This document shows, piece by piece, positions 4,583-62,313 of a DNA stretch of 64,000 nucleotides (positions are counted from its first letter, which is position 1; each line of letters opens with the position of its first letter). This stretch comes from Candidatus Iainarchaeum sp. (lineage in GTDB: Archaea; Iainarchaeota; Iainarchaeia; Iainarchaeales; UBA10219): positions 27,163 to 91,162 of the forward strand of contig JAGVWE010000003.1 of NCBI GenBank assembly GCA_018304425.1, written 5' to 3'. The position numbers were made by a program, and so were the translations under genes. The notes below the pieces were generated by a model. It was not told the origin of the DNA. It did no database searches and saw nothing but the letters and a program-made list of their open reading frames with translations.

Positions 4583-6178
4583 TCACTTGCACGCCATCAA
4601 TTCAACGGGTTGTTCGTACGTCCTTCCCTTGGACTTGCCCATGAGGGCCAGGGCCTTCTGGTAGCAGGCCTGGCCGCCGGGGGTGGGGTAACGTCCCGTG
4701 ATGCAGGCCATGCACAAGTCTTTCGCGCCGTTCTCGAGGCCGATGGCACGCACCAGGCCTTCCTTGGACTGGTAGACCAGCGAGTCGGCATTGATTTCCT
4801 TGCGGATTTTCTCGACCTGCTCGGGTTTCATGTCAATGGCGCCAATCCCGTCGTCGAGTTCCTCTCTTTGCAGGTGCCTGGAAGCAATCAATTCGTCCAA
4901 GGTGCTCATGTCGATGCCGTAAAAGCAGGGTGCGACGATGGGGGGACAGGAGACGCGGACGTGGATTTCGCGGGGATGCCCTTTCTCGCGGATGTAGGTC
5001 AGGAGCTCGCGGCTGGTCGTGCCCCGCACGATGCTGTCCTCGACGAGGATGACCTTCTTTCCTTTCACGACCTGCTTGATGACCATGTACTTTTCCTTGA
5101 CCCGTTCCAGGCGGTCGTGGGACTCGATGAAAGTCCGGCCCACGTAGCGGTTCCTGAGCAGCCCCTCCTTGGAGGGCAGGCCCAGGGTGTTGGCGTAGGC
5201 GTCCGCCGCAGGCTTCGCCGTGTCGGGAACCCCGACCACGACGTAATCGTCGTCGCTCTTGACGTCCAGGGGCTCTATTTTGGCGAGTTCCTGGCCCATG
5301 GCCCACCGCGCCTCGTACACGCTTCGGCCGTCCAAGACCGAGCCCGCGTTGGCGAAGTACACGTACTCGAACATGCAGTGCGCGTTGCGCGGGGATTTCG
5401 CGAAGCGCTTGACTTCCTTGGAACCGTTTTCGACCAGCAGCATCTCCCCGGGCTTCAGGTCCCTGATGCCGTTCTGCACGTAGTTCACCAACGCAACGGA
5501 TTCGCTGGCCGCGCCCGTGAAGCCCTCGTGGGAGGCGAACACGAGGGGCTTGATGCCGTAGGGGGCGCGCACGGCCGCGATATCGCCTTCCGCGTTGAGG
5601 TAGACGATGGAGTAGGAGCCGTCGAATTTCTCGGAGACGTTGGCGAAGGCGGCCGGGAGGTCCAGCTTTTGCTCGCCGATGAATTGCTTGGCGAGGAAGT
5701 GCTGGATGATTTCGGTGTCGGTGTTGAGCGTGATGTGGTATTTCTGGGCTTCAAGTTCGGCTTTGAGTTCCGCGTAATTCGCGAGGTTGCCGTTGAACGC
5801 GATGCTGAACCACTTCCACACGCGGCCGTGCTTGCGCTCGAAGGGCTGCGCATATTCCACGCTGTCCGAGCCGCAGGTCGCGTAGCGGATGTGGCCAATT
5901 CCTTTGGACCCGGAAAAGTCCCGCAGGAGGCGCAGCATCTTGTCGGGTTCCCTGGAGCGGAAGACCTCGTTGACGATGCCCAGGCGCTTGTGCGTGTTCA
6001 GGAGCAGGGGCCGCTCCGCGTTATAAGTCGTGATGCCCGCCGACAATTGACCGCGGTTCTGCTGGGCGAGCAGCATCTTGTACAAGTAGAAGGCCGCGCC
6101 TCCGGTGGGCCAGTCCTTGGGCTTGCCGCCGAGCGATACGGCTGCGACGGCACAGTTTTCCGTTGGCTCACCGGACAT
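4583..6178 (-). CDS. purF: Amidophosphoribosyltransferase PurF
   Basis: Ntn-glutamine amidotransferase N-terminus (propeptide then CAVAAV) plus a PRTase domain; 531 aa. Confidence 0.9.
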   Translation of the reverse strand: MSGEPTENCAVAAVSLGGKPKDWPTGGAAFYLYKMLLAQQNRGQLSAGITTYNAERPLLLNTHKRLGIVNEVFRSREPDKMLRLLRDFSGSKGIGHIRYATCGSDSVEYAQPFERKHGRVWKWFSIAFNGNLANYAELKAELEAQKYHITLNTDTEIIQHFLAKQFIGEQKLDLPAAFANVSEKFDGSYSIVYLNAEGDIAAVRAPYGIKPLVFASHEGFTGAASESVALVNYVQNGIRDLKPGEMLLVENGSKEVKRFAKSPRNAHCMFEYVYFANAGSVLDGRSVYEARWAMGQELAKIEPLDVKSDDDYVVVGVPDTAKPAADAYANTLGLPSKEGLLRNRYVGRTFIESHDRLERVKEKYMVIKQVVKGKKVILVEDSIVRGTTSRELLTYIREKGHPREIHVRVSCPPIVAPCFYGIDMSTLDELIASRHLQREELDDGIGAIDMKPEQVEKIRKEINADSLVYQSKEGLVRAIGLENGAKDLCMACITGRYPTPGGQACYQKALALMGKSKGRTYEQPVELMACK

Positions 6179-6275: not shown

Positions 6276-6758
6276 ATGCATTTCGTCGAGGTAGGGTGCA
6301 AGCCAGGGGTCAGGGACGTGCTGGGCCAGGCCGTCAAGGCCCGCCTCGAAGAAGACTTGTCCGCAGGAGTTAAAGGCCTCCGGAGGGTTGCTTTTATCGA
6401 CGTTTACCGCCTGGAATGCCTTTTGTCGCCCCAGGAAGCCGAAAGGATCGGGGCCGAGCTCTTGCGCGACCCCATTACCCAGGTGTTTGCCGTGGACCAG
6501 CCGGTGGAAGGGGGCTTTGACTGGAGTGTTACGGTGAGCCTCCACCAGAATGTTACGGACAACGTGGGCATCGCGGCCAGGGAAGGCATTGAAGACCTCC
6601 TGGGCCGGAAGCTGGACGAAGGCGAGCGCCTCCACTACGACCGGAAATACCTGTTCTGGGGCGACCTCACCGAGGCCCAGGTGAGGGACCTGGCTGGAAA
6701 GGCCTTGGCCAATGATTTCCTCGAGCATTGCCGGGTGGAGCGCGGCAGCCATGCCTGA
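6276..6758 (+). CDS. purS: Phosphoribosylformylglycinamidine synthase subunit PurS, fused tandem (two PurS-like halves)
   Basis: Both halves match the PurS pattern (KPGVRDVLGQAV...; VTVSLHQNVTDNVGIAAREGIEDLLG). ATG at 6276 is preceded by GGGGGAG. Its stop overlaps the purL ATG (ATGCCTGA). Confidence 0.65.
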   Translation: MHFVEVGCKPGVRDVLGQAVKARLEEDLSAGVKGLRRVAFIDVYRLECLLSPQEAERIGAELLRDPITQVFAVDQPVEGGFDWSVTVSLHQNVTDNVGIAAREGIEDLLGRKLDEGERLHYDRKYLFWGDLTEAQVRDLAGKALANDFLEHCRVERGSHA

Positions 6759-38164: not shown

Positions 38165-38237
38165 GGGGGTGTAGTCTAGCCTGGCAGGATTCGAGGTTCG
38201 GGACCTCGCGGCAGGAGTTCAAATCTCCTCACCCCCA
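38165..38237 (+). tRNA. tRNA-Pro (anticodon CGG)
   Basis: Cloverleaf fits: acceptor GGGGGTG/CACCCCC, D-arm AGCCTGGCA, anticodon stem CGAGG/CCTCG with loop TTCGGGA, T-arm AGGAG-TTCAAAT-CTCCT. CCA not encoded. TTTTTTT immediately 3'. Confidence 0.85.
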
Positions 38238-48154: not shown

Positions 48155-48279
48155 TAGTAGGCAGGGGGCGCCGGAGCAAAGGTTTAAATACGTAAGCCGC
48201 ACATAGTAATGTAGGTAGTAACTTTTTACTACTAACGAGTGACAAAGGTTTCCACTCGGAAGGGAGGAGGGAGTATTGG

Positions 48280-48582
48280 ATGAATAAGGCAATGGCTTTG
48301 GCGTTGATTGCATTGTTTGCTTTGACCGCTTTGCCTAGCTTTGTCTCAGCCTATTATCCCTATGGGTATTATGGCGGCTACCGCCCCGGCGTTTATAACT
48401 ACGGGGCACCGTATTATGGCTCGTACTATAACTACGCGCCAGGCTCGTACTACAACTACGCGCCATTCGTGTACAGCTACGCCTACTACAGGCCGGCCGT
48501 ATACAACCGGTACTACGCCTACCCAATGGGTTACCCCTATCAGTATGGGGGATGCGGCTGGGGTCCATGCGGGTATTGGTGA
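48280..48582 (+). CDS. Secreted Tyr/Gly-rich low-complexity protein (100 aa)
   Basis: Signal peptide then YYNYAPGSYYNYAP-type repeats (~30% Tyr); strong SD (GGAGGAGGGAG). Confidence 0.5.
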   Translation: MNKAMALALIALFALTALPSFVSAYYPYGYYGGYRPGVYNYGAPYYGSYYNYAPGSYYNYAPFVYSYAYYRPAVYNRYYAYPMGYPYQYGGCGWGPCGYW

Positions 48583-48642
48583 AGGCAGTAACGGCATGAA
48601 GTCTTGCCGCCTAGCTTACAGCAGCGTTGAAAAGGGAAAAAC

Positions 48643-49170
48643 ATGCGGAAAACCATTTTACTGGCGGGAATGATGGTGCTTGCGTTTTTTGCAGGCAACG
48701 CCCTTGCCGCCCCGTTTTACTACTACGGCGAGCAACGGGCCACGCCTGACTACTTCAACAGCATCGACCCCTTGATCGGCTCGCCCTATTACCCGGAAAC
48801 CGCCCGGACCTATAGCCTGCGCGGCTACTTCTTCCACCGCAACTACCCGGTGAGCGCGCTCTCCATGGCCTATGAGCCGCTACGCTCCGAGGAACGGTTT
48901 CCCTATGGCAACGTCTACTCGTATGACCCGTTCACGGGCCTGACCTATCTCACGGGCAGCAAAGGCTACCGGCCATTCGACTACCGCTACAACCAAGGCC
49001 TCGGCAGTGCCTGGAACGGCCAAGGCCTTTCGGGCCGAAGCGCCGGCCGAGACCCCTCGGGTCGAGGCCAGGGCTACCAGTACCTGGACGGCGTGGCCTA
49101 TAAGCAGCCCGCGGCAGCCAGCCCGGGCTTTGACTTTGACACGTATGCCAGAGGGGTAACCTACAGGTGA
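48643..49170 (+). CDS. Secreted aromatic-rich protein
   Basis: Signal peptide (AGNALAAPFYYYG) and Tyr/Phe-rich composition. Confidence 0.5.
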   Translation: MRKTILLAGMMVLAFFAGNALAAPFYYYGEQRATPDYFNSIDPLIGSPYYPETARTYSLRGYFFHRNYPVSALSMAYEPLRSEERFPYGNVYSYDPFTGLTYLTGSKGYRPFDYRYNQGLGSAWNGQGLSGRSAGRDPSGRGQGYQYLDGVAYKQPAAASPGFDFDTYARGVTYR

Positions 49171-49174
49171 AAAC

Positions 49175-49975
49175 ATGAAAACCACTGCCTATCTTTTGGG
49201 AATAATCTTTTTGGCCTTGTTCGCGGCCAACGCGTTCGCGCAGGCCACGGTCCAACAGAACCCCATCGATTACACGTACTACGGTTACCCGACGGACTAC
49301 CCCCTTAACTATATCCTGAAGAATAAGTTCCAGTTGTCGGGACCGGCCATGTTCGACTTCCGGTTCCTCTCACGGTACATCCCCAACGGAAAGCCGAACA
49401 TCCTCGAAGAAGGCGTGTGCGTGGACGACGCCTGCTACTGCAAGGTGAGATACGGCTTGCACGACAACACGAGTCACGTGCTGCCGCGCGACTACCAGAT
49501 TTACATCACGCACCACAACAGCGCCAGCGACTACTCCGCGCCCAGGGGCTCACACAAGGGCTTGTACATGGACTGCGGGCAAAGCGTTTACCCTCCGAAC
49601 CCCTATTATCCCGGGGAACGGAAGCCGCCCTACGTGCCCCAGGCTTACACGGCTGAAACCCTGGGCTCCAAGTACGGGACTCCGGTCAGCTGGAGCGTGG
49701 CCTATGACTACGCGAAGAACCTGCTCAAGCAACAGCCGCAGTCGGCCTACACCTACCAGCAGTTCTACGGCTATGGGAACACAAGCAACCCGCAGTTCAA
49801 CCAGTACACGCGCCAGGGCGCCTACGACTGGGGGTATCCCATTAACACGACCTACAACCCCTACCAGACCGGAAGCTCTTACCAGGGGCCTACCAGCATT
49901 GGAGACCCCCTAGCGGGGGCAGGCGGCTATAGGACCACCTACCGGCCGGGGTATACCTATCCCTACAATGGGTGA
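49175..49975 (+). CDS. Secreted Tyr-rich protein
   Basis: Signal peptide (FAANAFAQA); Tyr/Pro/Gln-rich; AGGTGA SD. Confidence 0.5.
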   Translation: MKTTAYLLGIIFLALFAANAFAQATVQQNPIDYTYYGYPTDYPLNYILKNKFQLSGPAMFDFRFLSRYIPNGKPNILEEGVCVDDACYCKVRYGLHDNTSHVLPRDYQIYITHHNSASDYSAPRGSHKGLYMDCGQSVYPPNPYYPGERKPPYVPQAYTAETLGSKYGTPVSWSVAYDYAKNLLKQQPQSAYTYQQFYGYGNTSNPQFNQYTRQGAYDWGYPINTTYNPYQTGSSYQGPTSIGDPLAGAGGYRTTYRPGYTYPYNG

Positions 49976-56434: not shown

Positions 56435-58294
56435 TCAACGCTCCTTTCGAACCCAGGCCAGGGCAGTCAACAGCAGGGCATAGCCCCCTAACAAGCCCAG
56501 TAAAGGCGTGAGCGCGGCCAGGGAGAGGCCTTTCACCATCAAGGCCAGCAGGACCTCTTTTGCTGCAGTCAAGGGCAGGAACCTGCTTATCGTGGCAATC
56601 CCGGCCGGCATGAACTCGAAGGGGAAAATCGTTCCGCTCAGGAACAGCATGGGAATCATGGCCAGCAACGAGCCAAGGATGGCCGTGGACAGGGTTTGCG
56701 TGAACTGGGCAATGAACAAGCCCAGCGCCGAAAAGGCGAGCGCGATGACGACCAGCACGGCCAACAACTCCAGGGGCTGCGCGTGCAGGGGCACGTTGAA
56801 GGCGAACACGGCCAAGCCCAGCACGATGCCGGCCTCCACCAAGGCGAACGCGAGTTGGCCGAACAGTTTGCCCGCCAGCCAGGTTCCCCTCGAGACGCTG
56901 GACAAGGCCACGCGTTTGGAAATCCCGGCATTGCGTTCGAGCACGACCGACAACGCGGTCAAGAGGATGCAGGTCAAGAGCAGGACAATGGCCACCCCTA
57001 CGGGGGTCACCACCGCCAGTTGGCTGGCCTGGAACGCCTCTTTTTCCGTGACCTCGACTGGCGTCACCAGGTACGCGGGCTGGTAGGCCTTGAAGCCGTG
57101 CACGTTTTCCAGCATGCCGTCCATCAAAGCGCGCGTTTTCTTGACGTCCTCGTTGAGTTCGGCCTGGGATTCCTTGGCCTCGAAAACGGTTGGCTTGCCT
57201 TCGGCGACCGTTTGCTCGAGCGAGGAAACGCTGTCCTCGAAGCCGCCCAGCGATTTCCTGGCGTCCTCGAGCCCGACCTCAGTGGCGTCAACGCCGGAAA
57301 GGGCTCCTTCGACGCGCGCGGCCGTGGAATCGATGTCCACCAGGACGCTGCGCAAGTCCGTGGAAACCTTGTTCATGGAATTCACCTGCACGGCCAGGCT
57401 GTTCTGCATCTGCTGGAGCTGCGAGCGCAGGGGTTCCGCGGTGTAGGCCTGCATCTGGGCCAGGTTTTGCCGCATGCGGAGCAATTCGCTGGTCTGCGCG
57501 CCCGACGTGTTCTGGGCGTCGAAGACTTTTTTCTTGTAGCCGGTGAGCAGCGCGCGCGTGTCCTCCAGGCCGGAACGCGAGGACTCCAGGCGGGTCTTCG
57601 TGTCGCCATAGAACGAGTTGAAGGCGTCCAGGTCACCGGTTTCCTTTTCCAGGTCAATGGAATCGAATTGTTGGCTGAGCTTTTCCAGTTTTTCGCGGGT
57701 GCGCGCCAGGGTCTCGGAGAACGAGAGCAGCTTCTGGTTCTCGCTGTCCAAGTCGGCCTCGATTTTTCCCAGGTCGGACCAGATGTCGCCCAGGAGCTCG
57801 GTCGCCGTCTGGTAGGCCACGCCGCGCACGGCCGCACTGACCTGGGCGGCAACGGCTTTGCCGGCCACGACCGAGGAATTGTCGTACACGACTTCCACGG
57901 AAACCGGCTGGTTCTTGGCCGAGGGCCGCTGCACCAGGATGGCCACCGTTTTTTGCCCGGAGGCGACGGCTTGCCGTGCCGCTTCCGGCGTGGAAACGAA
58001 TTCGAGTTTCAACGCGTTCTGGTCCGAAATCTTTTCCAAAAAGCTTTCGCGGTCAAAGCCTTCCCCGGATTCAGGGAGGTAGAGGGCGGCCGAGACGCTT
58101 TCGATGGCCGGCTTTCCCAGGGCTTCCGCGTACGCCGTGCCCTGCCCAAAGGCGAGGGCCAGGGAGAGCATGACCAGCGCAGGGTAGACCAGCACCAGGG
58201 CCAGGGCAATCCGTTGCGCGCCGATGAGCTTGACTTCCTTGGAGGCGATGGCGCCCAGTTGGAGCAGGGGCTGGAAGGGGCTAGGGCTTGGCAC
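56435..58294 (-). CDS. ABC-2 type transporter permease with a large extracytoplasmic coiled-coil domain (YhgE/Pip-like)
   Basis: N-terminal TM helix, long coiled-coil region, C-terminal 5-6 TM ABC-2 core. Confidence 0.7.
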   Translation of the reverse strand: MPSPSPFQPLLQLGAIASKEVKLIGAQRIALALVLVYPALVMLSLALAFGQGTAYAEALGKPAIESVSAALYLPESGEGFDRESFLEKISDQNALKLEFVSTPEAARQAVASGQKTVAILVQRPSAKNQPVSVEVVYDNSSVVAGKAVAAQVSAAVRGVAYQTATELLGDIWSDLGKIEADLDSENQKLLSFSETLARTREKLEKLSQQFDSIDLEKETGDLDAFNSFYGDTKTRLESSRSGLEDTRALLTGYKKKVFDAQNTSGAQTSELLRMRQNLAQMQAYTAEPLRSQLQQMQNSLAVQVNSMNKVSTDLRSVLVDIDSTAARVEGALSGVDATEVGLEDARKSLGGFEDSVSSLEQTVAEGKPTVFEAKESQAELNEDVKKTRALMDGMLENVHGFKAYQPAYLVTPVEVTEKEAFQASQLAVVTPVGVAIVLLLTCILLTALSVVLERNAGISKRVALSSVSRGTWLAGKLFGQLAFALVEAGIVLGLAVFAFNVPLHAQPLELLAVLVVIALAFSALGLFIAQFTQTLSTAILGSLLAMIPMLFLSGTIFPFEFMPAGIATISRFLPLTAAKEVLLALMVKGLSLAALTPLLGLLGGYALLLTALAWVRKER

Positions 58295-59273
58295 TGGCCT
58301 TCACCCCCGCAGGGGGCAGGTGCCTTTCCCCCGTCAAGTGGATGAACACGTCTTCGAGTTCGGGTTCCTTCAACTGCTGGCTCAACACCTTGATGCCCTT
58401 GCCTTCCACCAGGGAAACGATTTTGCCAGCGGCCTCAACCTGATTCCTTTCAGGCAGGGAAACGAAGAGGAAGTGGTGCTTCCACTGGACGCCGGCCTTC
58501 GGGTAGAGTCGGTGGATGCCGGCCAGCAGCTCTTTTTCGCGTTCCAGGTCCGTGCCTTCCGCGGCGCGGAGGGCCAGGATTTTTTCCCCGCCAAAGCGCG
58601 CGATGAGTTCCTTGGGGCTGCCGTGGGCCAGGATTTCCCCGTGGAACAGGATGGCCAGCTCGTCGCACAGCTTCTGGGCTTCCTCCATGTAGTGGGTGGT
58701 CAAGACAATGGCTTTGCCCTGTTTTTTGAGTTCCACGATTTTCTTCCAGAAGGTGTGCCGCACGTTGGGGTCCAAGGCAACCGTGGGCTCGTCGAAGAAA
58801 ACGAGGTCGGGGTCGTGGACCAGCGAGCACGCGATGTTCAGCAGGCGGCGGTAACCGCCCGAGAGTCGCTCGGCGCGCGTTGCCGCAAAGGGCCTGAGTT
58901 CCAGCCACCCGAGGAGGGCGGACACGCGTTCATTCAATGCCGCGCCGCCCAGGCCGTTGAGGCAGCCGAAGAAGCGGAGGTTTTCTTCCACGGAAAAGGA
59001 GGGGTAAAAGCATTCCTCCTGGGGCACGACTCCGAGGAACGCGTGCAGGTCCTTGCCGTATTCCTTCAAATCGCGGCCGCGGATTTTCACGTGGCCGGCA
59101 TCGCTGGGGTAGAGGCCGGAGAGGATGCCGAGCAGGGTGGACTTGCCCGCGCCGTTCGGGCCCAGGAGGCCGAAGACCTGGCCGTTTTCCACGGCAAAGG
59201 AAACCCCTTTCAACAAGGCCCGGCCCTGGAAGGACTTGCCAATGCCCTGTGCCTCTAACGCCGATTTCATCAT
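58281..59273 (-). CDS. ABC transporter ATP-binding protein
   Basis: Walker A (GPNGAGKST), signature (LSGGYRR) and Walker B (LVFFDEPT). ATG at 59273 (MMKSALEAQGI); 14-nt overlap with the permease gene. Confidence 0.88.
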   Translation of the reverse strand: MMKSALEAQGIGKSFQGRALLKGVSFAVENGQVFGLLGPNGAGKSTLLGILSGLYPSDAGHVKIRGRDLKEYGKDLHAFLGVVPQEECFYPSFSVEENLRFFGCLNGLGGAALNERVSALLGWLELRPFAATRAERLSGGYRRLLNIACSLVHDPDLVFFDEPTVALDPNVRHTFWKKIVELKKQGKAIVLTTHYMEEAQKLCDELAILFHGEILAHGSPKELIARFGGEKILALRAAEGTDLEREKELLAGIHRLYPKAGVQWKHHFLFVSLPERNQVEAAGKIVSLVEGKGIKVLSQQLKEPELEDVFIHLTGERHLPPAGVKASAKP

Positions 59274-59305
59274 AGAATTGGGGCCTATGGGGTTAAAATG
59301 CGTTT

Positions 59306-59315
59306 CCAAGGCGTT
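59306..59315. repeat. 10-bp direct repeat CCAAGGCGTT (left copy) flanking the low-GC Fic segment
   Basis: Identical 10-mer at 60894..60903; the intervening ~1.6 kb is ~40% GC against ~60% for the flanks. Confidence 0.35.
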
Positions 59316-59441
59316 GGCTTTGCTCTTAAAGTCGCTTTCGCTCCTTAAGTCGGGGTCTGCTCAGGTAGCCCCCCTGTTCGAATTAAGGCCCAATCAAGGC
59401 CAATAGGAAATAATGCCTGTTTCAGCACAACTACTAATTAC

Positions 59442-59515
59442 TACTAATTTAGTTAAAATTAGTAATATCGATAGGTTTTTATTACTAACATTTACTAATT
59501 TAGTTAAGATTAGTA
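59442..59515. promoter_or_regulatory. Two copies of a 23-bp palindromic site (TACTAATTTAGTTAAAATTAGTA / TACTAATTTAGTTAAGATTAGTA) upstream of fic
   Basis: Two near-identical palindromes ~50 bp apart in an AT-rich leader, plus the adjacent direct repeat CTACTAATT x2. Confidence 0.45.
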
Positions 59516-59529
59516 ATTGAGTTGTTCGT

Positions 59530-60888
59530 ATGAAGACCCCTGAAAAACCGCCGAGCTGGCCTAGTGAATTACGTACTTTCGTGAAAACAAACGATTTGCC
59601 AAAAATGCTTCAGGACAGCGAATTGTCCGGCATAATCAAGGAGAGCCAGAGAAAATATCTGTATTGGGAGGAACTCAGGCACCGCTACCCTAACCCGTCT
59701 CATCCCCACAAGTCCATCTGGGCGATTATCAAGCTTTTCAGGGTACAGCAATACAAGTCCATTGTGATAGGGGGTCGAGTTTTCAATTACTTTCTCACAG
59801 AGTCAGCACAAGAAAAACTTCGTTACGCTGATTCGCATGCCGGACAAATAATTGGTTCGGAATCTCCCCGCGATAAGTTTCAGGGCGGGGAAAGGAAGCG
59901 CTACCTGATTAATTCCCTGATGGAGGAAGCCATTGCTTCAAGCCAATTGGAGGGGGCAATGACTACTCGCAAGGTCGCCAAAGAAATGCTTAGAACAAAA
60001 CGCGAGCCAAGAAGCAAAAACGAGTTAATGATTTACAACAACTACCAAACAATTAAATACATTAAAGACCTTTTTGAGACCTCAAACGCAGGGGACAGCA
60101 AACTAACGTCTTCCTTGATTTTATCATTGCATAAGCTCATAACTAAAGGCACGCTTAAGAACCCGCGAGCCGAAGGAAAGTTCAGGGGCACGGATGACAT
60201 AATAGTCCGAGATGATGCCAACGAAGTAGAATACGTTCCCCCACCACATAATCAAGTCCCCACCCTAGTCAACGACTTATGCGATTTTGTGAATGCTCCA
60301 GCCCTCCCGTTCATTCACCCGCTAATTAAGGCCATAATACTCCACTTTCTGGTTGGATATATTCATCCATTTGAGGACGGCAACGGCAGGGCTGCGAGAG
60401 CCTTATTTTACTGGTTTTGCTTAAAGTCCGGTTACTGGCCCTTTGAGTTCATGCCCATTTCAAGGATAATAAAGAAAGCACCGGCAAAGTACGCGAGAGC
60501 ATTTCTTTTCACGGAATACGATGACTTGGACATGAATTACTTCATTGAATTCAATTTAGACGCGATAAAGCAGGCAATCGTTGAACTTGGCGCTTACCTG
60601 AAGAAAAAACAAAAAGAAAAAAACGAGGCGCTACAGTTAATGACTAAATTGGCCAAGGACCTTAATCTACGCCAATCCCTTATATTGAAGGACTTAGTGG
60701 AAGAACCTGAAAAAGCTCTCTCAATAAAAGAAACAAGTGCGAAATACAATGTAACCTATCAAACAGCGAGAACGGATTTATTGGAACTCTCAAAAAAAGG
60801 CTATCTTGGCCTACACAAGAAACGAAAGCAGTTCGTGTTTTATAAATCAGACAAATTCGACGAAAAAATAAGAACGGACAAAAACTGA
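59530..60888 (+). CDS. fic: Fic-family protein (AMPylation/phosphocholination fold) with C-terminal winged-helix region
   Basis: Fic motif HPFEDGNGRAARAL; 452 aa; low-GC gene. Confidence 0.88.
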   Translation: MKTPEKPPSWPSELRTFVKTNDLPKMLQDSELSGIIKESQRKYLYWEELRHRYPNPSHPHKSIWAIIKLFRVQQYKSIVIGGRVFNYFLTESAQEKLRYADSHAGQIIGSESPRDKFQGGERKRYLINSLMEEAIASSQLEGAMTTRKVAKEMLRTKREPRSKNELMIYNNYQTIKYIKDLFETSNAGDSKLTSSLILSLHKLITKGTLKNPRAEGKFRGTDDIIVRDDANEVEYVPPPHNQVPTLVNDLCDFVNAPALPFIHPLIKAIILHFLVGYIHPFEDGNGRAARALFYWFCLKSGYWPFEFMPISRIIKKAPAKYARAFLFTEYDDLDMNYFIEFNLDAIKQAIVELGAYLKKKQKEKNEALQLMTKLAKDLNLRQSLILKDLVEEPEKALSIKETSAKYNVTYQTARTDLLELSKKGYLGLHKKRKQFVFYKSDKFDEKIRTDKN

Positions 60889-60893
60889 AACGC

Positions 60894-60903
60894 CCAAGGC
60901 GTT
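60894..60903. repeat. 10-bp direct repeat CCAAGGCGTT (right copy); also part of the hairpin AACGCC-caa-GGCGTT plus T5
   Basis: Matches 59306..59315; embedded in a terminator-like hairpin between the convergent fic and trmB-like genes. Confidence 0.35.
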
Positions 60904-61592
60904 CAAGGCTTTTTAAGGGGGTGCAGGTGGGCCGCGAGGAACGGGCTTTCCAGGAAGAGCGCGCGCTCCTTGCGGGGGTCTTCCAGGGGCGGGTGCAAGA
61001 ACAAGAGCACGCGTTTTTGGTCGAAAACCGCATATCTCCCGGTCGGGCTTGCCTTATAATGGACTTTAACGCCTTTCCTGGCCAACTTATCGTTTTTTGC
61101 AGACAAGACCCCTTGTTTTCGCTTGATTCCCTCCCGGTCCGAGCAAATTACCACGCTTTCCCTGCAATTATCCGTTTCCTCGGCGATACGGTTGTAGATG
61201 GTGTGCCGGCCGGTGAGGATGACTGCGTCCTCGGCAACGCCTTGGCGTTCCTCTTTGGCGCCCTCGAGGAGGCTGGACAAGGAGAACGCAATGGTCTTCA
61301 ATTCCTGCAAGTCCTTGTGGTGGCGCTCCGTTTTGTCCAGGGCCAGGTTCTTGTACACGGTTTCCAGGCGAAGGGCCTTGAACTCCACGGGCTTGCTGGG
61401 CCTCCGCACCACGAAGCCCTTGGCCTCCAGGGAGGAAAGCACGTCATAGATGCGCGCCCGGGGAATGCCCGCGTCCTTCGACAACACCGCCGGCGTAGCG
61501 GACCCGAACCGCGAGAGCGCGGAATAGGTCTTGGACTCGTACTCGTTCAAGCCCAACCGCTTCAAGGAATCCAGGAGCTCGTGTCTAGGCAT
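60903..61592 (-). CDS. TrmB-family transcriptional regulator
   Basis: N-terminal TrmB HTH (LGLNEYESKTYSALSRFGSATPAVLSKDAGIPRARIYDVLSSLEAKGFVVR). Confidence 0.72.
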   Translation of the reverse strand: MPRHELLDSLKRLGLNEYESKTYSALSRFGSATPAVLSKDAGIPRARIYDVLSSLEAKGFVVRRPSKPVEFKALRLETVYKNLALDKTERHHKDLQELKTIAFSLSSLLEGAKEERQGVAEDAVILTGRHTIYNRIAEETDNCRESVVICSDREGIKRKQGVLSAKNDKLARKGVKVHYKASPTGRYAVFDQKRVLLFLHPPLEDPRKERALFLESPFLAAHLHPLKKP

Positions 61593-61695
61593 TCACCATC
61601 GACTAGTAGTAAGTCGTTACTAGAATAAATAGGTTGCGCGCCCGGGCAAGCCGTGGTTGCCACGGTTTTTAAACCCCTGCCCAGTCATTACCGCT

Positions 61696-62313
61696 ATGTG
61701 GGGGCCCGTTCGCAACCTGTTTTACTTTTTCTTCGACCTGCTCTCCAACCCGGCCAAGTGGTCGGTGTACCAATTCCTCCACCACCCCCTGCCGCCCTAC
61801 CAGGTCAACGTGGGCTGCAACAAGAACCTGGTGAGCGGCTGGATCAACGTGGACCGGGGCGGCAACGCCCGCCGCGCGCTGCGCATCGACATCCTGGGCG
61901 GCCTGCCCTTTGAGAATAACTCGGTCCGGTTCATGGCCAGCAGCCACTTCCTCGAGCATTTGACGCGGGCGGAAGCCAGGCAATGGTTCCGGGAAATCCA
62001 GCGCGTCCTCCAACCAGGGGGCGTTGCCCGCTTCGCCTTCCCCGAACTCGGCTACTTCGTGCGGCAATACGCGGCAGGCCGGATGCAGGCCTTCCTCAAC
62101 GACCCCGACACCAATGGAGACAAGTTCAACCACTTGTTCTACGACTACGAGCACCGCTATATCTACGACGAGGAAACCCTTCGAAAGGACCTCACGACAG
62201 CCGGTTTCAGGGAAGTCCGCTCCGCGTCATGGAACCAAAGCCAGTGCAAGGAATTGCAGGGCCTCGAAGGGGACAACCCCTACAAGGTTCCCTGCTACGA
62301 GGCCGTCAAGTGA
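61696..62313 (+). CDS. Class I SAM-dependent methyltransferase
   Basis: Methyltransferase fold motifs (VNVGCNKNLVSGWINVDR; LPFENNSVRFMASSHFLEHL). ATG at 61696, ~25 nt downstream of TTTTTAAA. The track ORF starts at 61657. Confidence 0.65.
   Translation: MWGPVRNLFYFFFDLLSNPAKWSVYQFLHHPLPPYQVNVGCNKNLVSGWINVDRGGNARRALRIDILGGLPFENNSVRFMASSHFLEHLTRAEARQWFREIQRVLQPGGVARFAFPELGYFVRQYAAGRMQAFLNDPDTNGDKFNHLFYDYEHRYIYDEETLRKDLTTAGFREVRSASWNQSQCKELQGLEGDNPYKVPCYEAVK

Follow-up and report, generated by a model that had tools for sequence, protein, structure and literature searches.

A stretch of 64,000 nucleotides from a Candidatus Iainarchaeum sp. genome (contig JAGVWE010000003.1, positions 27,163 to 91,162; this whole stretch is called the window, and positions refer to it unless another contig is named) carries a foreign cassette that appears to have brought in one gene, fic, for a class II Fic AMP-transferase, together with its own control region. 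We propose, with a probability of about 70%, that the encoded protein is an autoinhibited class II Fic enzyme similar to SoFic and CccR, that the gene came from a low-GC archaeal donor and was inserted as a cassette, and that the protein represses its own promoter. The insertion is seen in a comparison with related contigs that have an empty site, the expected domains and motifs are present in the protein, and the operator units in the fic promoter are inherited together with the winged helix of Fic and co-vary with it.

The fic insertion and its donor

The GC content is 0.417 over positions 59400..60890 and 0.595 in the remainder of the window, and apart from this low-GC stretch none of the 1-kb bins across the 64 kb falls below 0.53; the drop in GC described by an earlier interpretation made from the letters alone (the sequence-only reading) is therefore real. 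The GC content at third codon positions (GC3) is 0.50 in fic versus 0.78-0.86 in five neighbouring genes. As had also been described, fic is the sole gene of the low-GC stretch: its only long open reading frame (ORF) is 59530..60888 on the plus strand, with 452 amino acids. The features of the locus are:

58281..59273, minus strand: ABC transporter ATPase gene of the host (Pfam ABC_tran), directly after TrmB before the insertion
59306..59315, plus strand: left 10-bp direct repeat CCAAGGCGTT, host sequence, ~33 nt upstream of the ABC ATPase start codon
59316..59431, no strand: left 116 bp of the insert, from the junction to operator unit 1, of intermediate GC
59432..59464, plus strand: operator unit 1, TACTAAT-TAC-TACTAAT-TTAGTTAAA-ATTAGTA
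59476..59483, plus strand: TATA-box-like element TTTTTATT, preceded by GATAGG, putative archaeal core promoter of fic
59483..59515, plus strand: operator unit 2, TACTAAC-ATT-TACTAAT-TTAGTTAAG-ATTAGTA, abutting the TATA-like box and covering the expected transcription start
59530..60888, plus strand: fic gene, 452 amino acids (Pfam Fic, E=2e-19)
60888..60904, minus strand: junction hairpin AAACGCC-CAA-GGCGTTC, 7 pairs, with a T-run after the stem, terminator-like for TrmB
60894..60903, plus strand: right 10-bp direct repeat, overlapping the final base of the TrmB stop codon
60903..61592, minus strand: TrmB-family regulator gene of the host, outside the cassette (Pfam TrmB, E=1e-19; GC3 0.78)
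61602..61622, minus strand: palindrome of the TrmB promoter, which can be read as CTAGTA-N9-TACTAG or as TAGTAA-N4-TTACTA and comes directly after a TATA-like box

TrmB homologues with 62-65% identity are present on three short, Diapherotrites-like contigs (L121, L122 and L123), all of which lack fic and have only 45-85 bp between the TrmB stop codon and the start of the ABC ATPase gene. The called gene order in L121 is MarC - TrmB - ABC ATPase - permease; in L122, TrmB is followed by a gene of an uncalled family whose 5' end is nearly identical to the ABC ATPase gene of L121, and the end of the L123 contig (MarC - TrmB) falls just inside the putative ABC start. When positions 59316..60903 are removed from the window, the remaining spacer and those of L121 and L122 line up in every column but for a single gap of one base, over the distance from the TrmB stop codon, via the TTTTAA box, to the start codon of the ABC gene. 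This collinearity indicates a true insertion with the 10-mer exactly at both junctions, and the idea of a horizontally acquired single-gene cassette, for which a comparison with relatives lacking the insert had been suggested, is borne out by the empty sites in all three contigs. On the strand of the host genes the right junction reads ...AAAAAGCCTTGA / ACGCCTTGG / GCGTTTCAG[fic...] and the left junction ...AGCC / AACGCCTTGG / AAACGCATTTTAACC...ATGATG(ABC).

The identical 10-mers reported for both boundaries are indeed found on the plus strand at 59306 and 60894; a third copy of CCAAGGCGTT, which the sequence-only reading had missed, lies at 61236..61245 on the minus strand within the TrmB gene, and the three copies in the window compare with 0.32 expected. 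This third copy belongs to a perfect palindrome (AACGCCTTGGCGTT, 61232-61245) that is similar to the junction hairpin, AACGCC-CAA-GGCGTT. Only six 10-mers fit the 15-nt right junction between the fic and TrmB stop codons, and the chance that one of the six recurs in the ~120-nt left junction is p ~0.0007 when calculated analytically and ~0.004-0.008 when corrected for host composition. What is unusual about the 10-mer is its position at two junctions that are set independently by the empty site, and judging from this position it behaves like a target-site duplication. In this insertion, 1588 bp of foreign DNA (59316..60903, one repeat copy counted) entered the ~40-nt spacer between the TrmB stop codon and the promoter of the ABC-transporter operon in a Diapherotrites-like (DPANN) archaeon of 59% GC; the 10-bp direct repeat that it left behind reads AACGCCTTGG in the direction of the host genes. 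The locus does not have the pattern of an integrase element: the target is an intergenic spacer, and the sole tRNA gene of the window is at 38165. There are no other copies of the insert within the window.

The hairpin at the right copy of the 10-mer had been described as a bidirectional terminator. The hairpin is real, but it has a terminator-like score on the minus strand (the TrmB side) only; on the plus strand a T5 run begins 6 nt beyond the stem. It is a product of the junction, as follows from the empty-site alignment: the insert end supplies its left arm, and its right arm belongs to the host copy of the repeat. The 116-bp left segment of the insert has no match in the other fetched loci besides the identical population contigs; blastn-short against all loci and the rest of the window returned only matches of 12-13 nt and one of 25 nt at 92% identity, all of them at chance level (E >=0.39).

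The identical locus recurs in numerous metagenome assemblies from groundwater and in a single genome assembly at NCBI (GCA_013331455.1), and fic occupies this site in all 22 contigs, from many samples, that were read with an identical TrmB protein; within the population sampled, the insertion is thus fixed. NCBI assigns this TrmB protein to a Candidatus Diapherotrites archaeon. When the exact TrmB and ABC ATPase proteins were looked up, only fic-bearing contigs were returned, and thus no empty site from the same population. This complete occupancy is the one observation in favour of fic being a native gene of the lineage with an unusual composition, rather than an insert. We consider this practically negligible, given the three relatives that have TrmB beside the ABC ATPase without fic, the GC3 of 0.50 and the occurrence of the closest fic genes in unrelated contexts of other archaea.

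A second difference between the window and its relatives is a methyltransferase gene (61657-62313) between TrmB and MarC: it is absent in L121 and L123, where MarC is directly followed by TrmB. With its host-like GC3 of 0.83, the gene may have been inserted here long ago or lost in the relatives.

Homologues of the Fic protein are numerous (more than 6,900 at E <= 0.001); the best are 72, 71, 71, 70, 69, 65, 63 and 55% identical, and the nearest named ones are assigned to 'archaeon' and 'Diapherotrites'. The genomic context was inspected for six of the best homologues. All six contexts are archaeal and all differ from one another: a GTPase and Hjc resolvase (L046), eRF1, an amino-acid kinase and diphthamide synthase (L128), an M50 peptidase and a PAN-like AAA ATPase (L125), HIT/Maf genes and tRNA-Ser (L127), AAA_14 and HAD genes (L124), and an IS200-like transposase and small TrmB-like gene (L045). 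In these relatives the GC content of fic is 0.36-0.40 and that of the flanking DNA ranges from 0.42 to 0.58; L125 shows the same pattern as the window, with a fic gene of 0.40 GC within a host of 0.58. More distant family members (35-42% identity) are bacterial, bar one weak archaeal match (Woesearchaeota, L044). The presence of a low-GC fic in such varied archaeal contexts argues for repeated transfer among archaea and for a low-GC archaeon, rather than a bacterium, as the proximate donor. A low-GC bacterial origin, as had been suggested together with a search for bacterial nearest relatives, does not fit: the nearest homologues (55-72% identity) lie on archaeal contigs, their own fic genes are of 0.36-0.40 GC and a TATA-like box of archaeal type lies between the operator units. 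No close relative of the window fic is found in IMG/VR that could point to a viral carrier.

Two of these loci have further notable neighbours. In L127, fic lies ~210 bp downstream of a tRNA-Ser gene (4704-4790) and is followed by a fragment that, by eye, resembles a tRNA 3' end, as at integration sites of mobile elements. In L045, a gene for an IS200-like Y1 transposase (1433-1978) and a gene for a TrmB-like protein of 169 amino acids (2088-2597) are found directly upstream of fic; L045 is the only relative with a TrmB-like neighbour.

The Fic protein and its operator units

The Fic protein has an additional N-terminal domain (residues 1-110), an inhibitory motif (S137-G142), the Fic core and, at the C-terminus, a winged helix (residues 380-439). 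The assignment as a Fic-family enzyme with a winged helix-turn-helix (wHTH) at the C-terminus, made in the sequence-only reading, agrees with the Pfam Fic match, with the intact active-site motif and with the structure model. The active-site motif HxFx(D/E)GNGRxxR is present as H279PFEDGNGRAAR290; H279, P280, F281, D283, G284, N285, G286, R287, A289 and R290 are invariant in 48 homologues, and from this motif the protein is predicted to be catalytically intact. The inhibitory motif of class II Fic proteins, (S/T)xxxE(G/N), precedes the core as S137-S-Q-L-E141-G142, is invariant or nearly so in the same 48 homologues and falls within a helix of the model (119-140). The AlphaFold2 model has a predicted local distance difference test score of 86.8 and shows the Fic fold; its best structural matches are Fic proteins, mostly with a C-terminal winged helix (4rgl, SoFic, 7cb8, CccR and Coxiella Fic2). 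The PADLOC profile of SoFic matches residues 126-438 with E=6.6e-47. Pfam detects the wHTH as a weak HTH_DeoR match (residues 394-426), and its recognition helix, at about residues 410-422, contains the sequence TYQTARTDL.

The N-terminal domain (59530-59860) consists, in the model, of helices and a beta hairpin at residues 76-87; conserved within it are MKxPEKPP, Y43, W46 and W64. SoFic and CccR do not have it, and no significant sequence match was found in PDB. It could be a second DNA-binding module. The window Fic belongs to a distinct subfamily, which has this added domain.

In the leader of fic, two 23-bp palindromes had been noticed, and both are there (59442..59464 and 59493..59515), with a chance expectation of none. 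Each palindrome belongs, as the 3' part, to a longer direct repeat of 35 nt (59432..59466 and 59483..59517), in which a third half-site, TACTAAT or TACTAAC, is present as well; the resulting 33-nt unit has three half-sites, two direct and one inverted, and reads TACTAAT-N3/4-TACTAAT-N9-ATTAGTA. The arrangement is conserved: six archaeal relatives have two units ~51 bp apart, with the second ending ~15 nt before the ATG, and the position of unit 2 relative to the start codon (-37/-38) is kept. Upstream of fic, L045, L046, L124 and L125 have a unit at an equal distance, L127 and L128 have one with variation, and all six have a T/A-rich, TATA-like box between the units, which is GATAGG or GATGGG followed by TTTWTATT in L045, L124 and L125 and a variant of this in L046, L127 and L128. 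Units thus precede fic in seven archaeal contexts with unrelated neighbours. As in CccR, the palindromic sites lie in the promoter of the protein's own gene; here the units bracket the TATA-like box, with the same layout in the relatives.

Among homologues of only ~40% identity, units likewise lie ahead of the genes from Hymenobacter, Isosphaeraceae, Omnitrophica and a number of metagenome contigs. The bacterial locus L047 has a sigma-70-like -35/-10 promoter in place of the TATA-like box (unit 1 at 60-93, TTGACT at 100, TATACT at 128, unit 2 at 134-167), and in another, L048, TTGACA (-35) directly follows unit 2. Both units of L048 and unit 1 of L047 lie upstream of the -35 box and are not transcribed, indicating that the unit acts as DNA and not as RNA. 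It appears that the same pair of operator and recognition helix is used across the divide between bacteria and archaea and that only the core promoter has been exchanged.

The units sort with the sequence of the recognition helix. Among 45 loci, all 15 with a (T/V)Y(Q/E)TAR(T/R/K)DL helix have at least three TACTA/TAGTA pentamers within 300 bp upstream, and 29 of the 30 with other recognition helices (TPTTAKSDI, TQPTAKKDL and others) have at most one, L038 being the exception with three. The loci with other helices carry long promoter palindromes of their own, for example AATTCTTTCCAAT-N9-ATTGGAAAGAATT and AAACTATRAAAAT-N9-ATTTTYATAGTTT, and these sort with the helix type too. From this co-variation, and as no other neighbouring gene is conserved, we infer that the units are bound by the winged helix of Fic itself.

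The sequence-only reading had proposed a different regulator: the neighbouring TrmB-like protein, which would repress fic by binding the TACTAAT palindromes. Its observation that a TAGTAA-N4-TTACTA palindrome is present in the TrmB promoter holds (61607..61622). TACTA/TAGTA pentamers occur in both promoters and are rare in this genome (33 in 64 kb, most of the others from Tyr-Tyr codons), and the small TrmB-like gene directly upstream of fic in L045 would also fit. Against control by TrmB, the palindrome occupies the same place in the fic-less contigs L121-L123 as CAGTA-N9-TACTG, with symmetric changes on both arms (reading CAGTAC..TTACTACTG); it thus predates the insertion. TrmB itself is found beside MarC in L121 and L123 and beside the ABC genes in L121 and L122, so that the gene with its palindrome is ancestral host sequence, older than the cassette. 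In addition, the half-sites of the TrmB site, (C/T)AGTA-N9-TACT(G/A) when the relatives are included and TAGTA..TACTA in the window, are everted relative to those of the fic units (TACTAAT-N9-ATTAGTA) and differently spaced. No TrmB-like gene is called in the Pfam tables near the unit-bearing fic genes of L124, L125, L127 and L128, and there is none among the four neighbours scanned in L046. The presence of units follows, instead, the recognition helix of Fic. Control of fic by TrmB is consequently very improbable, and the palindrome at 61602..61622 is probably TrmB's own operator, unrelated to the cassette.

A second TAGTAA-N4-TTACTA palindrome is located at 48216..48231, just past a TATA-like box and ahead of genes for small, apparently secreted Tyr-rich proteins (48280..49975). 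The pattern occurs beyond chance expectation, and the two palindromes suggest a small TrmB regulon unrelated to fic. A cluster of TACTA pentamers in the same region (48155..48721) was considered as a set of fic-type operators and rejected: it consists mostly of Tyr-Tyr codons of the small Tyr-rich proteins.

With Fic as the binding protein, autorepression would work as follows. Fic dimers would occupy unit 1, upstream of the TATA-like box, and unit 2 via the C-terminal winged helix with TYQTARTDL. Unit 2 abuts the TATA-like box and would cover the expected transcription start near 59505..59510; binding of Fic would thereby block the TATA-binding protein and transcription factor B, or RNA polymerase, and this negative feedback would keep the enzyme level low. 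The intramolecular inhibitory helix would keep the basal enzyme inactive. Excess enzyme, relieved repression or relieved autoinhibition would then lead to AMPylation of a cellular target, comparable to AMPylation of EF-Tu by SoFic, with an antiviral or stress response as the probable role. The idea of a potentially toxic Fic enzyme under repressor control thus survives in part: putative repressor sites are present, the protein has its own inhibitory helix, and Fic itself is the likeliest repressor.

There is precedent for these steps in bacteria. CccR represses its own promoter via palindromes that are bound by its C-terminal helix-turn-helix (HTH) as a dimer (PMC9755527). The dimer of SoFic binds DNA upstream of its own gene (the first 100 bp), SoFic AMPylates EF-Tu (bioRxiv 10.64898/2026.07.09.737422), and it is a reported anti-phage system (bioRxiv 10.1101/2022.05.11.491447; PMC12249575). 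A role of the window Fic in defence or stress is our best guess, because SoFic AMPylates EF-Tu and SoFic-type genes protect bacteria from phages. The horizontal mobility of fic and the operator copies in viral contigs are at most suggestive of protection from viruses.

Solitary operator copies and the mode of insertion

Several observations weigh against self-repression by an inserted, SoFic-like Fic, or are left aside by it. The transcription start of fic is predicted only. The NCBIfam equivalog profile of SoFic, NF046030, scores 43.8 bits at a cut-off of 550 bits, and the identity to SoFic and CccR is only 16-21%. The co-variation of unit and helix is partly phylogenetic, as the loci are not independent. 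With regard to the insertion, no pair of terminal inverted repeats joins the two insert ends, no recombinase gene lies between the 10-bp repeats (fic is the sole gene of the cassette), and exact 10-mer repeats as such are common, with four pairs within 59200..61000. Of the seven archaeal loci, five (all but the window and L128) have a further unit just downstream of fic, as do several bacterial loci, so that fic has direct repeats of its operator on both sides, and copies of a second operator class, TTCTTTCCAAT-N9-ATTGGAAAGAA from Bacteroidales fic promoters, are found 5-35 nt after the stop codon in L025, L030, L036, L043 and L055. Finally, the exact tripartite unit, with its 21 fixed bases, occurs once each in 76 viral contigs of IMG/VR (L131-L206; GC 0.29-0.62). 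Simple autorepression explains neither the downstream nor the solitary viral copies.

The 10-bp repeat may be something less specific than a target-site duplication of the transposase type, either a chance match or microhomology used in illegitimate recombination or repair, possibly as the best-preserved core of a longer, decayed duplication of the TrmB 3' end; we regard this as a serious possibility, though not the favoured one. It would agree with the lack of terminal inverted repeats and of a transposase, with the four exact 10-mer pairs in 1.8 kb and with the third copy of the 10-mer in TrmB. The imperfect direct repeat of more than 100 bp in L124 also suggests a variable duplication length rather than a fixed stagger. 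Against it stand the copies exactly at both junctions defined by the empty site, the restoration of the spacer to within one base when the insert is removed, and the positional probability of ~0.001-0.008. A weak collinear similarity does exist between 59316..59365 and 60904..60987 (the TrmB 3' end), but it is equalled by 10 of 1000 shuffles and by 69 random host segments out of 1000; judged by these host-composition controls, the similarity is not significant as a sign that a longer stretch of the TrmB 3' end was duplicated and decayed.

The cassette of L124 is flanked by its imperfect direct repeat at 4601-4744 and 6431-6534, and the contig ends within the right copy. By eye, the repeat appears to include the promoter and first codons of the neighbouring gene. 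This suggests that target duplications of variable length accompany the insertion.

Of the 76 unit-bearing contigs, 66 are unique in sequence; a composition-matched permuted pattern gave no viral matches and a pattern with the first half-site flipped gave three. Examples are L131:1832-1864, L144:11978-12010, L147:188-221 and L162:2799-2832. Only nine of the 76 units lie within an ORF of at least 100 amino acids, although 79% of the bases do, and the flanks of the units are unrelated to one another. No common gene family was found beside them; tblastn and hidden Markov model searches of ~5 kb on either side for Fic or wHTH homologues identified only one fragment, in L160, and none of the 76 ranks within the 80 best Fic-encoding viral contigs that the family profile retrieves. 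An association with tRNA genes is restricted to a few contigs (L144, L147, L162/L163): in four viral contigs the unit, on the opposite strand, takes up the whole spacer that separates two tRNA genes in a phage tRNA array.

The fragment in L160 (4429-4572) encodes 48 amino acids that match the C-terminal winged helix of Fic (E=4.5e-9) and lies 58 nt from the unit at 4630-4663. Within an ORF ~2.6 kb away there is also a weak resemblance to the Fic motif, which is not significant (tblastn E=0.32; core-profile E=0.73) and which the strict motif scan did not detect. L160 may be a decayed cassette.

The second operator class behaves similarly. It is present in 73 viral contigs (L210-L282) that form ~14 groups by flank similarity; one copy is beside a Fic gene (L213) and 72 are away from one, and 12 of the 73 are within ORFs. 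Examples are L211:811-841 and L229:1794-1824, and the genes neighbouring the second-class copies are unrelated, for example a Xis-like HTH_17 protein and an endolysin. The flanks of orphan sites in gut phages match only unannotated faecal phage records, BLAST of the fic leader against cultured phages returned only chance-level matches, and nothing relevant came up when the literature was searched for the motif.

Could the main function of the TACTAAT units, or a further one, be to delimit a mobile fic cassette as sites of attachment or recombination? Solitary copies would then be empty sites or scars, and the 10-bp repeat would be secondary. In favour are the third, direct-orientation units at or just after the fic stop codon (L045:4074-4096, L046:7360-7382, L124:~6369-6391, L125:~6369-6391 and L127:~6375-6397), the second-class copies just past the stop, the strongly intergenic position of the viral copies of both classes, the tRNA-Ser gene and tRNA-like fragment by fic in L127 and the IS200-like transposase in L045. 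However, no recombinase is linked to the units and the viral contexts have no gene family in common; the window has no downstream unit, and its junctions do not coincide with the units, one being 116 bp to the left of unit 1 and the other at the stop codon. That the units keep a fixed position around the core promoter in both archaea and bacteria, and in L048 stand immediately ahead of the -35 element, fits operators, and so does their match to the recognition helix. We consider attachment sites unlikely, and favour the units as operators of a Fic that would repress itself.

The viral copies are compatible with three readings: they could be the ends or scars of cassettes, copies of the defence gene's operator that viruses carry as a decoy or trigger, or sites of an unrelated protein. 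A direct interaction between virus-borne operator copies and SoFic-type defence genes is a speculative idea to which we give a small chance. In one version, replicating viral DNA would titrate Fic off its own promoter or alter its oligomeric state and thereby switch the defence on; in the other version, a viral decoy site would hold the enzyme in a DNA-bound, harmless state. No mention of virus-borne copies of Fic operators was found in the SoFic papers bioRxiv 10.64898/2026.07.09.737422 and PMC12249575 or in a literature search. If the solitary copies are true partners of Fic, they point to how SoFic-type defences sense viruses or are evaded by them.

Comparison with known systems

As a case of a single gene transferred horizontally to a DPANN archaeon, the locus is clean and datable: there is an empty site, the junctions are exact and the promoter is of the donor type. 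It would extend the self-repressing Fic-HTH design known from CccR and SoFic to archaea and to a large uncharacterised subfamily, and as it supplies a concrete operator sequence and a candidate recognition helix, autoregulation is directly testable.

CccR of Yersinia pseudotuberculosis (PDB 7xux; PMC9755527) is, like the window Fic, a class II protein with an N-terminal inhibitory helix motif and a C-terminal HTH, and its binding as a dimer to palindromes in its own promoter for self-repression is the mechanism that we propose for the window Fic. The two proteins share only 16-18% identity, and CccR, with 380 amino acids, lacks the extra 110-residue N-terminal domain. Unlike the window Fic, CccR is secreted by a type VI secretion system and targets FtsZ; this has no archaeal counterpart. 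The operators differ as well in sequence and layout, the window fic having two tripartite units around a TATA-like box.

SoFic of Shewanella oneidensis (PDB 3eqx/3zcn; PADLOC PDLC03963), a single-gene anti-phage system, is likewise a stand-alone gene for a Fic protein with a wHTH, and it binds its own promoter, which requires dimerisation. Identity to the window Fic is ~20%; the window Fic differs in its extra N-terminal domain and its archaeal host, with a TATA-like box that replaces the bacterial promoter. A small gene like AS1 downstream of fic is absent from the window, and nothing consistent is found at this place in the relatives of the window fic.

Type II toxin-antitoxin systems (for example class I FicT/FicA, Phd/Doc) and autorepressors with a wHTH of the AbiEi type also combine a potentially growth-arresting enzyme with negative autoregulation at inverted repeats in the promoter. 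In contrast to these, the window cassette lacks a gene for a separate antitoxin: one polypeptide, Fic, contains both the DNA-binding domain and the inhibitory helix.

Insertion sequences and miniature inverted-repeat transposable elements share with the cassette the discrete insert, the short direct repeat of host sequence and the empty site in relatives. The cassette, however, lacks a transposase and terminal inverted repeats and is not repeated elsewhere in the window, and its passenger is a complete, regulated gene; judging from its content, it moves as a single gene without a linked recombinase. Taken together, the window system is most likely a variant of the self-repressing Fic-wHTH design: a distinct subfamily with tripartite operators and an archaeal promoter.

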